Below, piece after piece: positions 39,994 to 50,796 of a DNA stretch of 64,000 nt; positions within the stretch are counted from its first letter, which is position 1, and every line of letters begins with the position of its first letter. The stretch lies in assembly GCA_036867785.1 (NCBI GenBank), contig CP145418.1, positions 434,001 through 498,000 on the forward strand, given 5' to 3'. Origin of the DNA: Plasmodiophora brassicae. Lineage: Eukaryota. The notes below the pieces were generated by a model, which was not told where the DNA came from, ran no database searches, and saw nothing but the letters and a program-made list of their open reading frames with translations. Made by a program: the position numbers and the translations under genes.

Positions 39994-42573
39994 ATGTTGG
40001 TTCGGGTGCCATTTGGAAGATGTCGGGGCGTGCGTCGGGTGGCGCTGGTTGCTGGACGGCGCGTACAGGCGGCGTCGGACGCGTTTCAACGATTCGTTTC
40101 GTGTCCGTCGGTGGCGCTGGCGAGCATGGCGCTGAGGCAGGAAGATGATCCTGGCCGGGCGTGGCACGTGTTTCAGATGGTGGTGGAGTCCAGGGCTGAG
40201 CTTGGTGTCAAGTTTTTCCATCTGGTGATGTCGTTCTGCAAACGACAAATGCAGTCCAAGGCACCGGATGTGCTAGCCGCTGCTGTCTCGCATGATGTAC
40301 CAGTGGATGGCCCCCTGTTCTGCGGCTTTCTGGACGCTTGTCAGAGGGGGATCCCTCCTCTTGTGGACGAAGCTCTGTCACTGTACTTTAAATGCGCGCC
40401 TCGTTCGCATGCAACGCTCTTCGCCATAGCCCGCCTGTGCAGGTTTGCGAAGCAGCCCGAAAGGGCGCTGCCAGTGATCCTGGATGCCGTTCAGATAGCG
40501 CCTGACCATATCACCGTTGGTCTTTTGTCCGTCTTCGCAGTATGCTGCGCTGAAGCCAGATTGCCATTCGCGGCAGACGTTGCGGAACGGTTGCTTCAGT
40601 TGATACAGTCCAAGCGCGGCGCGTTGTTGCCAGATGGTCCGGCGTTTGGCAACCTCATGAAAACGTTGATCCTGCAGAAACGCCTTGAGCAAGCGTACAA
40701 CGTGATGTCTGTCATGGCATCGCTTCGTCTGCCTATTCCTGTCCAGATGTACACTCATATCCTGTCCGCACTTGCCAAACACGGTGACACCAGACAAGCA
40801 ATGGTTGTGTTTCAGAACATGGTCGACGGGAACGTTGCGGTCGATTCACCAGTTCTGGCATCCCTCATTGCAGCTTGCGGTCGTGCCGCCGACGTCGCAA
40901 CTGTACGAACTCTCCATTCGTATGCAGCTGTCGAGAACCTGTTGCAGTCCGAGATCGTAGCAAGCGCATTCATCTCAGCGTATGATTTATGTCACGATCT
41001 GGATGCCGCGGAGAAGGTCTTCGATGCCAGTTCCGCCCGTCCAAACGTGCACACTCTCAACGCCATGATGGCCGCGTATAACCGGCGCGGCATGGTTCAG
41101 CGTGCGCTTGCCGTGTACGAACGATTCAAGCATGTCGGACTTCGTTTCGACATGAAATTACTGCACAACGTTCTTTCCATCCTTGTTAAAGCTGGCCTCG
41201 TACATCAGGCCCTGGAAGTCTTTGATGCCTTGTCCGATCATGGAACTGCTCCAGTGAGCTATCCGGCATTTGCGATGCTTGTAGGTGCATGCGGTCGATC
41301 TTCCGATTCACAAGCGCTTCGCAAGTTGTACCAGCATGCAAGCCGCTTTTCGCTCCTGAAAAACGTCATTGTTGTCAGTGCATTCGCAGCCGCATATGGG
41401 CGTTGCGTCGAGCTTGCTGACGTTCAATCCCTCGAGCAACATGTGAAAATGCTTCTGAAACATGATGCTGTTGCGAGTGCCTTCATTTCTGCCTACGACC
41501 GTTGTCGGCACCTGGAGGGGGCTGAACGCGTTTTCACTGCTCGCTGCACATCAGTTACTCGGCCAGGCGTTGAGACGTTCAATGCTATAATTGCCGCCTA
41601 CAGCCACCATGGCATGCTAGAGAAAGCACTGGCTGTGGTTCAGCATGTCAAAGACTCCAGATTGCCGGTGAACATGGAGACCTACACGACGATTCTGTCG
41701 GTTCTCGTCAAAGGTGACCGGGTTGCTGAAGCCTTGTCCGTGTTTATCGCAATGGTGTCGCAACGTTTCGTCGTCGATACGCCTGTCTTCGCCTCTCTTG
41801 TCGCGTCGTGTGGTAGACTGTCTTATGTCTTGTCTCTGCGTTCGCTCCGTCGCTACGCCCAGGAGCACGGGTTACTGACGAATGAGATCGTCCTGTGCGC
41901 GTTCATTGCTGCCTATGATTTATGTGGTGATGTCAACACAGCAATGCACATCTTCCAGTCGCGTCGCAACACCGATGTCGCTACGTTCCATGCGATGATG
42001 GCCGCGTTCGTGCGCCATGCAAGGTTCAGCGAGGCTGCGGAACTGTTCCAGCAGTACGCGTTGTCCGGGCTCCCCCTCGAACGAGATGAAACGTTCAGTA
42101 TTCTGTGCGGATTCGCTAGGGCGAACCGCATTGACGAAGCCTTCACAGTTTTTAACACACTCGTGGGCCGAGGCGTCCCGGTGCCCAGCATTGCCCTGTC
42201 TGTCCTCGTTGTCGCCTGCGGTCGGCGCGCCAATGTGGCTTTTGTTCGTACGTTATACGAATATGCATGCGATCGTTCGCTCACACAGAACGTCGTACTC
42301 GGGTCTGCGCTACTATTTGCTTTCGATGCTTGCGGCGACATTAACGCTGCTGAGAACATGTTCGCTGCCCAATGTCGGGCTGGTGACGCGGATCCGTCTC
42401 TGTTCAAGGCAATGGTCGGTGCATACTGTCGACGAGGAATGCGTTCTCACGCAGTCGAAACGTTGGAACGAATGAAGCAGGCCGGCGTGCTAGTCACCAA
42501 AGCGGATCTGTACAAGGCGTCGTTATCGCATACTCTTCGCCAAGCAGGCGCACAAGAACTTGCTCATCGGTGA
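39994..42573 (+). CDS. Pentatricopeptide repeat protein (PLS-like motifs), intronless, 859 aa
   Basis: Repeated FNAIIAAYSHHGMLEKAL / LASLIAACGR..V..LH / SAFISAYD.C.DL.AAE.VF motifs; Arg-rich N-terminus. Confidence 0.88.
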   Translation: MLVRVPFGRCRGVRRVALVAGRRVQAASDAFQRFVSCPSVALASMALRQEDDPGRAWHVFQMVVESRAELGVKFFHLVMSFCKRQMQSKAPDVLAAAVSHDVPVDGPLFCGFLDACQRGIPPLVDEALSLYFKCAPRSHATLFAIARLCRFAKQPERALPVILDAVQIAPDHITVGLLSVFAVCCAEARLPFAADVAERLLQLIQSKRGALLPDGPAFGNLMKTLILQKRLEQAYNVMSVMASLRLPIPVQMYTHILSALAKHGDTRQAMVVFQNMVDGNVAVDSPVLASLIAACGRAADVATVRTLHSYAAVENLLQSEIVASAFISAYDLCHDLDAAEKVFDASSARPNVHTLNAMMAAYNRRGMVQRALAVYERFKHVGLRFDMKLLHNVLSILVKAGLVHQALEVFDALSDHGTAPVSYPAFAMLVGACGRSSDSQALRKLYQHASRFSLLKNVIVVSAFAAAYGRCVELADVQSLEQHVKMLLKHDAVASAFISAYDRCRHLEGAERVFTARCTSVTRPGVETFNAIIAAYSHHGMLEKALAVVQHVKDSRLPVNMETYTTILSVLVKGDRVAEALSVFIAMVSQRFVVDTPVFASLVASCGRLSYVLSLRSLRRYAQEHGLLTNEIVLCAFIAAYDLCGDVNTAMHIFQSRRNTDVATFHAMMAAFVRHARFSEAAELFQQYALSGLPLERDETFSILCGFARANRIDEAFTVFNTLVGRGVPVPSIALSVLVVACGRRANVAFVRTLYEYACDRSLTQNVVLGSALLFAFDACGDINAAENMFAAQCRAGDADPSLFKAMVGAYCRRGMRSHAVETLERMKQAGVLVTKADLYKASLSHTLRQAGAQELAHR

Positions 42574-47996: not shown

Positions 47997-49752
47997 ATGG
48001 GGATCCTGCTGTGCGTTGCCGTGCTGCTCGGTGGCTGGGCGACAGCGTCTCTGTATCCGAGTGACCTTAATGGCATATACCGGGGCGCGTGGAACAGCGA
48101 CCCGCTGGGGAGCGGGCAGATGTTCATGCAGGTCATCGAAGAGCATGTTGACGACCCGCGGCCGGCGTACCAGCTGATGCGAGGCGAGATCGTTCTTCGT
48201 CAGCATGATGACCCGCACAACGATGCGTACCTCATATTCGCTGGGGCATACGTGCGCGCCACTGGCGCCATGCTGTTGTTCAGCAATGTGCCCAACTGGA
48301 ACCGCCGACCGGATTTCCAGAAATTCGTCGGTAGCCGCAACGGTTCAGAGCAGTACTGGCCAGAGATCGATATGGGCGATGGCGTTGTCCCTGTGAGGAC
48401 GTTCGCTGCCATTGGCAATTGCCGTTTCACCATGGAGCTTCAAGTGCTTCCGTTGATCTTTGGCGATAACCGTGAGTACGACCCAGACACCGGCGATACT
48501 GTCTGGCGTCAGGGCTCGCGGGACATTGATCGGGCCAGCATTCAAGGCATCCTTATCAGTGATGATTGCCACCGTGGGTGTATATCAATAACGAGGGATA
48601 TGGCCGATGTATGCTGATTGCTGTGTGGTTAGTCAATGTGTCAATTGCGACTGCCCGCACACAGTCGACGGTTGTTCTTGATCGTGCCTCGGGTTTCGCC
48701 ACGATGGCATCGGGGTTAACGATCATCCAGATGCTGTTCACGGTTCGTCAAGTTCAGCATACGGGCCGCTTGGGGGAAGTCTCCATGTGGGCGATCGCGC
48801 TCCAATCCCTGCTCGACGCGTATTTGGTACGTTGTTTGAAGGTCAGCCGTCTACATAATCTGACTGTGTACTGTGTGTAGTGTGTGAACCATATTGGTGT
48901 GGCAATGCGCGTCCCAGGTCTGTGGCTCTCTTTCATGGTGCTGACCATGTTCGAATTCCTCTTGTTTTCCCTATTTCAAGTAAGGCTGCTGTTCCTGATA
49001 TGGAAAGCGAATCATCGCAATGCGTTCGATATCGCGACGGCAGAAGAGAGGCGCAATATGATCAACAACCTGAATACGCGGCTTTACATATTCATATTCG
49101 GTGGCCTGCTCCTAATCTTCTACACGGGCCACGACCACGAATTCCTGACAACAATCGTTCTGCACTCACCTTGGGTAGCGCAAATCATCCATAACGTCTG
49201 TACGTCGTCCCATTTGTCAGACGTTCATGCGCGCTTGTCTGAATCATTTATCTAGATTATGATGTTAGCCGAGGGCTTCTTCCCAATTACATTCTTGTCA
49301 TGGCGGCCTCGAGACTGGTTCTCCCTCTGTACCAGTATGGCGACCCTGAGAACTATATGGAAACGCCAACCAACTACACGGTAAGCAGCAGCGTGTGTGG
49401 TCATTGGGTACCTGGGTCTAAATGCCTTTAGTTTTGTTTCTTCCTCGTCCTGTGGGTCGTGACTCAGGTTGCGTTGCTTCTTGGTCAGCACCATCTGGGA
49501 TCGCGATTCTTTATAGCCGGTCGGTTCCTGCCAGCGAAGTACAACTATTATCAGAGCGTGCCGGTGACGAACGAAGACATTTGCGCGATATGCATGATGG
49601 AGATTACCGAAGACGTCGAAACCCAGCAGGAAGAACCGCAGACAATCATGGTGACGCCCTGCAATCATCTGTTTCACAGCATCTGCCTCATCACGTGGAT
49701 GGAACAAAAGATGGAGTGTCCGTCGTGTCGAGGACCTCTACCTTCGCTATAG
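47997..49752 (+). CDS. Tul1/Dsc1-like multipass RING-H2 E3 ubiquitin ligase
   Basis: Signal peptide, lumenal domain, TMs (QSLLDAY; SPWVAQIIHN; GSRFF..FLP..YNY), C-terminal CAICM...TPCNHLFH..CL..WM..KMECPSCR.PLP. Confidence 0.85.
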
Positions 49753-49823: not shown

Positions 49824-50639
49824 TCATGCTGTCGCTTTTTCAAGATAAGCGATGATGTCGCGACGGTCAGCGTCGGACTTCAAGCCGGCGAACACCATCT
49901 TGGTTCCTGTTCATGAGGCATATTAGCAGGCGGTCGTCGTCTCGTGCTGACAGGTTTCAACTTACCCGGGATCATTTTCTTGGGATTGACGAGGTACTGG
50001 TCGAGGGTCTCAGCAGTCCACGTTATACCACTCGTCGTGTTGGCTTTCGTGTACGAGTACCCATCCGCCATGCCGGCCGGGCGTCCCAGCAGCCCATGAA
50101 GATTAGGGCCCTGTTTATGAGCGCCACCCTGTATGCAGCATACTAGTTCACATGCAACTCTTGCACGTGGCAATTCAGAAGCCGATCACTACCTTCTCGA
50201 CGGTGTGGCTAATGTCCCACATGAGTCTCCAGGGCAGACATCATGCAGAGGCGGCGACATACCATGTTGAACATTTGGTCTTGAAAATCTTGGCGCCTTT
50301 GGCAACGGCGGCATCGCCTTCGTTCCCAGTCGTGGCCGATGCCTTCACGGTCTCCGTTTCCGCTTCAGGTGCCGATTCCCCGTCTTTCTTCGTCTCCTTG
50401 CCGTGAGCGGCCACCTTCTTGTTGACTTCCGGCTCCTTCTTGCCGTATGTGCCGCCCTCGACCTCATCCAGAACGTGCTTCAAATACACGACCGCGGCCA
50501 CGGATCCCACTGTAACCAGCGCCAGGCCCACGTGGAATCGACCATCATCGGGTTTCTCGTAGTCAAACTTCGGAAAACTACTCAGCGGGCGACGCGACCT
50601 CGACCGCAATGGCCGCACCAGCGTCCGAATCGAACGCAT
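49824..50639 (-). CDS. Mitochondrial-type cytochrome c with long N-terminal presequence/TM extension (4 exons, 212 aa)
   Basis: Exons 50639-50263, 50208-50193, 50128-49966 and 49906-49824 give ...[33 protein letters not shown]...[17 protein letters not shown]...IIAYL. Confidence 0.92.
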
Positions 50640-50796
50640 TGCCCGCTATTAGGAATCGTCGACCTGGCCGGGTCCCACAAACGCCAAAATAAATACCCCC
50701 ACTGCGGCTCCGTTCACGCGCGGAATACCGAATGCGTTTTCTTCTGCGTTTTTGGGACAAGCCTTACGACTCATTTGTATTTGGTGCAGCTCGCCG

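Follow-up and report, generated by a model that had tools for sequence, protein, structure and literature searches.

The genome of the rhizarian Plasmodiophora brassicae (Endomyxa, Phytomyxea) encodes a 212-aa protein in which a complete mitochondrial-type cytochrome c domain is preceded, in this order, by an Arg-rich acid-free N-terminus, a hydrophobic segment and a charged spacer. Its four-exon nuclear gene lies on the minus strand (50639-49824) of the window, the whole 64,000-nucleotide stretch of contig CP145418.1 that was analysed, and all coordinates below are those of the window. The protein, whose targeting, topology, anchor retention and redox partners we infer, may be a third, specialised cytochrome c isoform, which would be tethered to the mitochondrial inner membrane by stop-transfer and act as an electron carrier beside the soluble isoforms, a reading that is held here with about even confidence. 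The free diffusion of cytochrome c, together with the gain that a supercomplex draws from a shorter path, is an active question in bioenergetics. In mitochondria this question has so far been approached only with an engineered tethered protein (PMC7474732). The layout is known from bacteria and from engineered yeast, and it was not described for natural mitochondria in the literature searched.

The spliced coding sequence of the gene is 639 nt long, and the gene contains three introns of 54, 64 and 59 nt, each of the GT..AG type. The start codon ATG (50639-50637, minus strand, as for all features of this gene) and the stop codon TGA (49826-49824) were read directly from the sequence, as was the in-frame TAA TAG just 5' of the ATG (50646..50651), which closes the upstream ORF at 50649 and prevents any extension of the reading frame in the 5' direction. 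Exon 1 (50263..50639) comprises 125 codons and two bases, open to the GTATGT donor, and begins with Met1 and breaks off after two bases of codon 126, encoding the entire extension and the initial 18 haem-domain residues, up to the first Cys of CSTCH. Intron 1 (50209..50262; 54 nt, GTATGT..TAG) is followed by a micro-exon of 16 nt (50193..50208), which finishes the second Cys codon and encodes HTVEK, and intron 2 (50129..50192; 64 nt, GTAGTG..CAG) by exon 3 (49966..50128), which contains the core of the cytochrome c domain and ends with NPKKMIPG. Downstream of intron 3 (49907..49965; 59 nt, GTAAGT..CAG), exon 4 (49824..49906) carries TKMVFAG, with the axial Met, and the remaining C-terminal residues up to and including the TGA. 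The micro-exon sits inside the haem-binding motif, and gene finders easily miss an exon of this kind. The coordinates and the strings quoted in the first-pass annotation are correct, the translation of exon 1 contains the three parts that it had described, a presequence, a hydrophobic segment and a charged spacer, and Met1 is indeed the only Met before the haem motif. It had placed the whole of CSTCH in exon 1, which is wrong, as the motif is split by intron 1 inside the second Cys codon (exon 1 ends at 50263) and the micro-exon supplies the rest.

Public runs containing the stretch (20 of 24 listed, from 10 studies) carry RNA labels that are guesses, and transcription was judged from splice joints. 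Four runs were examined, namely three spliced runs from three studies (X1, X2 and X3) and one DNA-like run (X15). In each of the spliced runs a single contig extends unbroken from 50710, 50711 or 50693, respectively, down to 50263, where the next joint spans 132 bases with 14 letters between; these 14 letters and 2 letters shared with the acceptor make up the micro-exon in 3/3 spliced runs. The contigs then cover 50130-49965, skip 59 bases and resume at 49905 to continue beyond 49500. The introns are covered and the joints are absent in the DNA-like run. The 5' ends of the spliced contigs, 54-72 nt ahead of the ATG, delimit a minimal 5' UTR (50640..50711), which contains no ATG. Neither a joint to an upstream exon nor loose ends were reported in the contigs of X1, X2, X3 and X15. 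The gene is real and transcribed, and the extension and the haem domain, which the first-pass annotation had taken to be continuous, lie in one spliced contig in three studies. Splicing of a short exon with an upstream ATG directly to the haem domain, the outcome that would have spoken against that annotation, was not seen in the contigs of these studies, where rare isoforms are dropped and a minor splice variant could escape.

These data bear directly on the possibility of an annotation or assembly artefact, in which the extension would be an untranslated leader and the real protein would be short and soluble, starting near the domain. Such leaders do seem to occur in public collections, as six of the seven other long cytochrome c entries with an upstream hydrophobic stretch resemble translated leaders, but the present gene has no Met beyond Met1 and no use of a splice acceptor before the domain, and in three studies no ATG stands ahead of Met1 in the transcript. 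Moreover, the extension is strongly non-random and targeting-like, and the 212-aa product is given by two independent public annotations, against which an artefact appears very improbable indeed.

A word-based search with the extension among proteins of 69-221 aa matched one of 40 candidates, the 212-aa P. brassicae protein P0002 (97% identical), whose cluster comprises CEP01958.1 / SPQ98817.1 (PBRA_002223) and XXQ35990.1 (P0122). The product of the window is identical to P0122 and differs from P0002 at residues 90, 91 and 105; all three differences between these public alleles (AP/SS and G/E) are located in the spacer, while presequence, helix and haem domain are the same in both. The public product names are only those of a hypothetical or a 'cytochrome c domain-containing' protein. 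The NCBI record of P0002 is labelled '(mitochondrion)' despite spliceosomal introns and a contig of 1.28 Mb, which is probably a labelling slip. The neighbours of the gene are ordinary nuclear genes encoding a PPR protein, a RING finger protein, PIG-M and a DUF7703 protein. Among them, the RING-finger gene (49594-49752, plus strand) is oriented towards the cytochrome c gene, the stop codons lying only 71 bases apart, and the 3' ends of the two genes probably overlap, because RNA-like contigs run across both. The PPR gene (39994-42573, plus strand) is a single ORF of 859 aa with PPR_2 at 131 bits, whose product is probably an organellar RNA-binding factor.

Judged by its residues, the haem domain is a normal, intact mitochondrial cytochrome c. 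The sequences GPNLHG and PGTKMVFAG are present, in agreement with the canonical cytochrome c with an axial Met that had been recognised earlier, and residues 112-209 score 53.7 bits with Pfam Cytochrom_C (PF00034), whose cut-off is 21.3. Searched by itself, exon 3 matches mitochondrial cytochromes c of known structure, with 100 distinct chains at E <= 0.001 and 2b4z_A as the best (E 4.2e-19), while Pfam searches with single exons gave 0 families, the pieces being too short, and whole proteins were scored instead. In an alignment of 20 sequences the protein keeps 39/39 invariant columns, including C123, C126, H127 and M189, and shares 64-74% identity with the other 18 cytochromes c (the allele P0002 left out). 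AlphaFold gives pLDDT values of 83-96 over most of the domain. Mitochondrial cytochrome c is normally soluble and contains no presequence, and its size is about 104-115 aa. By all sequence criteria the 212-aa protein is a member of this family, apart from its size and its missing free N-terminus: it shares CXXCH, the axial Met and all invariant columns with soluble mitochondrial cytochromes c, including those of P. brassicae, but has 107 extra N-terminal residues and a domain start without Met. Most docking lysines are kept as well. The docking surface may nevertheless differ from that of its relatives, because Ser occupies alignment position 196, where Lys is nearly invariant, and the Lys-Lys of the relatives at positions 196-197 is replaced by Ser-Asp. 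A Met stands in place of Tyr at position 183, a change common to Lotharella.

P. brassicae encodes two canonical short cytochromes c, P0145 (103 aa) and P0200 (105 aa). A search of shorter proteins with the haem domain matched 843/843 candidates, of which the best 120 were listed, and among these listed matches P0145 and P0200 start with MGD/MAGD as ordinary soluble cytochromes c do. Identity to the 212-aa protein is 73% for P0145 and 68% for P0200 in the haem-domain search and 66-69% for both in the 20-sequence alignment. The two short proteins are 83% identical and form sisters in the tree (SH-aLRT 90); they are reported with the same longest contig figure (1,452,332) and may lie on one chromosome. 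The 212-aa protein is an extra, specialised paralogue and not 'the' cytochrome c of the organism, because two canonical short ones coexist with it. All three P. brassicae paralogues carry CSTCH, which occurs in 5 of the 246 collected CXXCH proteins (the two allele forms of the 212-aa protein, P0145, P0200 and P0135). A quick tree built from 74 rows and 104 columns places them, together with Mataza and Lotharella, in a weakly supported group of 13 rows (SH-aLRT 83), and a constraint joining the three is not rejected (p-AU 0.872), the constrained tree lying 26.7 log-likelihood units above the free quick search. The long form may have arisen by a duplication specific to this lineage, followed by the gain of part of an exon at the N-terminus, a history that is no more than compatible with the data of 104 columns.

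The haem domain of the long form has a long end branch (0.32, vs 0.06 and 0.19 for the short paralogues). Together with the changes in the 86-88 Lys patch, and as the main flux could pass through the soluble paralogues, this branch would suit a protein that is anchored but is not a shuttle between complexes III and IV, serving instead as a dedicated electron acceptor or donor for another intermembrane-space enzyme, such as the Erv1 disulfide relay, a peroxidase or a dehydrogenase for lactate or another substrate, or occurring in dual long anchored and short released forms as Mgm1 does. Such a role or dual form is considered improbable, as the protein keeps every invariant residue and the majority of docking lysines and no candidate partner is found among the neighbours (the RING-finger gene, the PPR protein, PIG-M and others).

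The extension ahead of the haem domain consists of 107 residues, where the first-pass annotation had counted about 105 with a linker of about 50. Residues 1-21 (50577..50639) form a putative matrix-targeting presequence, which is amphipathic and acid-free and contains 7 R; the first acidic residue of the protein is at position 26, and the best amphipathic moment over 11 residues is 1.03. The sequence R17-P18-L19|S20 presumably fits the R-3 rule of the matrix processing peptidase. A short mixed-charge stub (residues 22-34; 50538..50576) lies between the presequence and a single hydrophobic segment (residues 35-53; 50481..50537), which has a mean Kyte-Doolittle value of 2.0, no Pro, two Gly and one Ser. 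The remaining 54 residues (residues 54-107; 50319..50480) form a spacer of low complexity, which is rich in K/E/T/G/A, contains no Arg, has a net charge of -3 and is predicted at pLDDT <50. When the extension was shuffled, a 19-residue hydropathy window of 2.0 was attained in 4/20000 shuffles, a 25-residue acid-free start with 7 K/R in the first 21 residues in 15/20000, and an amphipathic moment of 1.03 in 36/5000; the features of the extension exceed chance. AlphaFold, with no alignment depth in this region, places residues 20-104 at pLDDT <50, and its only helix spans residues 48-60, none being confident over 35-47. The anatomy proposed in the first-pass annotation (presequence, hydrophobic segment, spacer and gene model) is thus present apart from the position of CSTCH, while the tether and the bipartite import route, which it had offered as interpretations, stay the two leading readings.

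A presequence, a proline-free helix and an intermembrane-space domain, in this order, constitute the stop-transfer arrangement of the TIM23 pathway. In the tethered reading, the Arg-rich amphipathic N-terminus would take the precursor through TOM and TIM23, and the proline-free segment 35-53 would arrest translocation and move sideways into the inner membrane, with about 19 residues being trimmed by the matrix peptidase. The haem domain would remain in the intermembrane space, where haem would be attached, giving a mature protein of about 190 aa, N-in/C-out, which bears the haem domain on a flexible spacer of 54 residues. Like that of Rhodobacter cytochrome cy, the tethered domain could then move back and forth between cytochrome c1 in complex III and complex IV with its subunit 2. 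A reading as an ER signal-anchor was also considered and rejected, as haem is attached only with the help of the mitochondrial machinery.

These features of the N-terminus are also consistent with a cleaved protein. The extension resembles the bipartite presequences of cytochromes b2 and c1 and of cytochrome c peroxidase in that, by composition, a positive matrix-targeting part is followed by an uncharged hydrophobic sorting segment, and an inner-membrane peptidase or a rhomboid might cut after or within residues 35-60, removing the Arg-rich part and the hydrophobic segment and yielding a soluble cytochrome c whose N-terminal tail would be acidic and disordered and whose import would be independent of trapping by haem attachment. 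This outcome, which is judged unlikely though well ahead of the other alternatives, draws on the fact that the Cyb2 signal is cleaved in the native protein, as are about half of the known intermembrane-space proteins with a presequence and a helix. Several properties of the segment, which count against the tether, point the same way: it is only moderately hydrophobic (2.0), its Gly38, Gly45 and Ser46 would weaken a helix and be in keeping with a sorting signal that is cut off or with a substrate of a rhomboid, and the net charge of the matrix-side stub is -1, not positive. On the other hand, the mature parts of cytochromes b2 and c1 begin close behind the cleavage site, whereas 54 residues separate the sorting segment from the haem domain here, a spacer that is atypical of cleaved bipartite presequences, and two canonical soluble isoforms already exist in the organism.

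The inner-membrane tether can be compared with systems in which cytochrome c is known to be held at a membrane. Cytochrome cy comprises a helix of 30 residues, a linker of 69 residues and a domain of 100 residues, and about 45 linker residues are enough for respiratory transfer (PMC7876108). The 212-aa protein is similar to Rhodobacter capsulatus cytochrome cy (CycY) and Paracoccus denitrificans c552 in having a putative N-terminal membrane helix, a spacer predicted to be unstructured and a C-terminal class I cytochrome c, in its overall size and in its coexistence with soluble cytochrome c, as in the pair of c2 and cy, and its spacer has a length within the range of cy-type linkers (about 45-70 residues). 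It differs from them in its anchor and spacer, which are unrelated in sequence (0 phmmer matches), in the added presequence, in its spliceosomal introns and in its haem domain, which groups with rhizarian and other eukaryotic cytochromes c. With introns in its gene, a eukaryotic haem domain and an anchor and spacer that lack relatives, the protein is placed by these comparisons as convergent with cy and c552 and not of their family. Transfer from a bacterial cy gene was examined as a separate possibility and is ruled out by the introns and the eukaryotic haem domain.

The closest design in mitochondria is the engineered Cyc1-MA of yeast, in which Toth et al. (2020) combined the targeting signal and helix of Cyb2, the linker of cy and Cyc1, and which was membrane-bound, received haem and supported respiration (PMC7474732). 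Both proteins contain a targeting signal, one helix, a flexible linker and a mitochondrial cytochrome c in the same order, the first three being predicted in the P. brassicae protein, but Cyc1-MA is man-made from Cyb2 and cy parts, whereas the P. brassicae protein is the product of a natural gene with unrelated parts. A further likeness is suggested by the sequences of three COX6A fusions (P0034, P0125 and P0130), where cytochrome c would be held to an inner-membrane helix via a long acidic spacer; the anchor in these proteins is a recognisable complex IV subunit, and the spacer has about 120 residues, is far more acidic and is unrelated in sequence.

Overall, the tether is favoured because the spacer of 54 residues is long enough in view of the ~45 that suffice in cytochrome cy (PMC7876108), and because the same design works in yeast mitochondria in the form of Cyc1-MA (PMC7474732). 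It is also favoured because a third soluble product made via a longer route seems redundant beside two soluble isoforms, because the spacer would be without evident use in a cleaved protein, and because all three allelic changes are located in the spacer, as expected of a linker that is constrained in length and free in sequence. Finally, the COX6A-spacer-cytochrome c fusions favour it because they would give an independent precedent in another eukaryote. Besides the properties of the hydrophobic segment and the stub, three points count against the tether: the want of a confident AlphaFold helix over residues 35-47, which weighs weakly as there is no alignment depth there, the lack of an orthologue with the same layout in the collections searched, and the Ser-Asp at positions 196-197, which may alter the docking surface. 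A broader proposal is put forward tentatively and with somewhat less than even confidence, namely that P. brassicae has a two-tier system like that of Rhodobacter, with two diffusing isoforms and a tethered one whose helix docks at the interface of complexes III and IV, and that tethering, if the COX6A fusions are counted with it, has been re-invented more than once in mitochondria. A helix face of small residues (G38, G45, S46, A48 and A49) would be the docking side at this interface.

The same layout was sought in other organisms. A phmmer search with exon 1 against 1.84 billion representatives gave 0 matches, a weak negative as the protein's own cluster is missing too, because extended forms may be filed under short cytochrome c representatives. 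A metagenome scan for the extension found no relative, and another metagenome scan yielded a single locus with a distant cytochrome c, at 40% identity (L001). Orthologues with the same extension, to which the first-pass annotation had looked for confirmation, were found in none of these collections, from which phytomyxid relatives may be missing. A search for cytochrome c homologues of 116-371 aa matched 737 of 1056 candidates, of which the best 120 were listed and 46 read, and among the matches listed the closest named homologue of at least 116 aa is a protein of 118 aa from Mataza sp. D1 (Cercozoa), which contains no hydrophobic segment. The region upstream of the motif was scanned for hydrophobic stretches in all 246 collected CXXCH proteins. 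CXXCH is located at residue 40 or later in 53 of the 246, and 12 of these have a window of at least 1.6, comprising two alleles of the 212-aa protein, the three COX6A fusions and seven others. Six of the seven (all but P0119) carry a Met immediately ahead of the canonical start, and their upstream parts look like leaders that were translated. The nearest entries in the Atlas are bacterial c-type cytochromes of 175-179 aa with scores of 0.85-0.87, which are below 0.9 and serve as a lead only. By these searches the extension appears to be an orphan with no detectable relative. In the openly searchable literature no paper was found on the locus tag, on this gene or on a natural eukaryotic tethered cytochrome c, and the papers examined on P. 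brassicae and rhizarians mention only cytochrome c oxidase.

If the tether is real, a natural tethered isoform beside soluble ones would represent an evolutionary experiment on restricted cytochrome c diffusion and a clear convergence between a eukaryote and alpha-proteobacteria. It would also provide a natural system for asking what restricted diffusion is useful for, e.g. respiration in hypoxic galls or cytochrome c retention. If the segment is cleaved instead, the protein would be a cytochrome c imported via the presequence pathway, which would be likewise unusual. Toth et al. hold the view (PMC7474732) that tethered variants no longer operate in mitochondria, which a true tether, together with the COX6A fusions, would contradict.

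The COX6A fusions P0034 (326 aa), P0125 (343 aa) and P0130 (324 aa) each combine, within a single open frame, an N-terminal COX6A with its membrane helix, an acidic spacer of ~120 residues and, at the C-terminus, a mitochondrial cytochrome c, with Pfam scores of 29-32 bits for COX6A (cut-off 25) and about 57 bits for Cytochrom_C. These proteins and the fragments P0028, P0124 and P0126-P0128 come from environmental ENA/JGI contigs of 0.6-1.6 kb, and no paper on a COX6A-cytochrome c fusion was found in the literature. If real, they would tie cytochrome c to complex IV itself and would constitute an independent second case of tethering in eukaryotes. Other long entries are extended at the C-terminus, where a canonical cytochrome c is followed by about 100-130 residues (P0043, P0044, P0046 and P0081-P0084, 218-241 aa; P0074, P0101 and P0102, 204-222 aa), and one group of them contains QPKVE repeats in variable number. 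Two red-algal transcript models of 181-182 aa, P0010 (MMETSP, Rhodo...) and P0042 (Purpureofilum apyrenoidigerum), contain ubiquitin (PF00240) directly followed by cytochrome c, and represent either a fusion or a read-through of adjoining ORFs.
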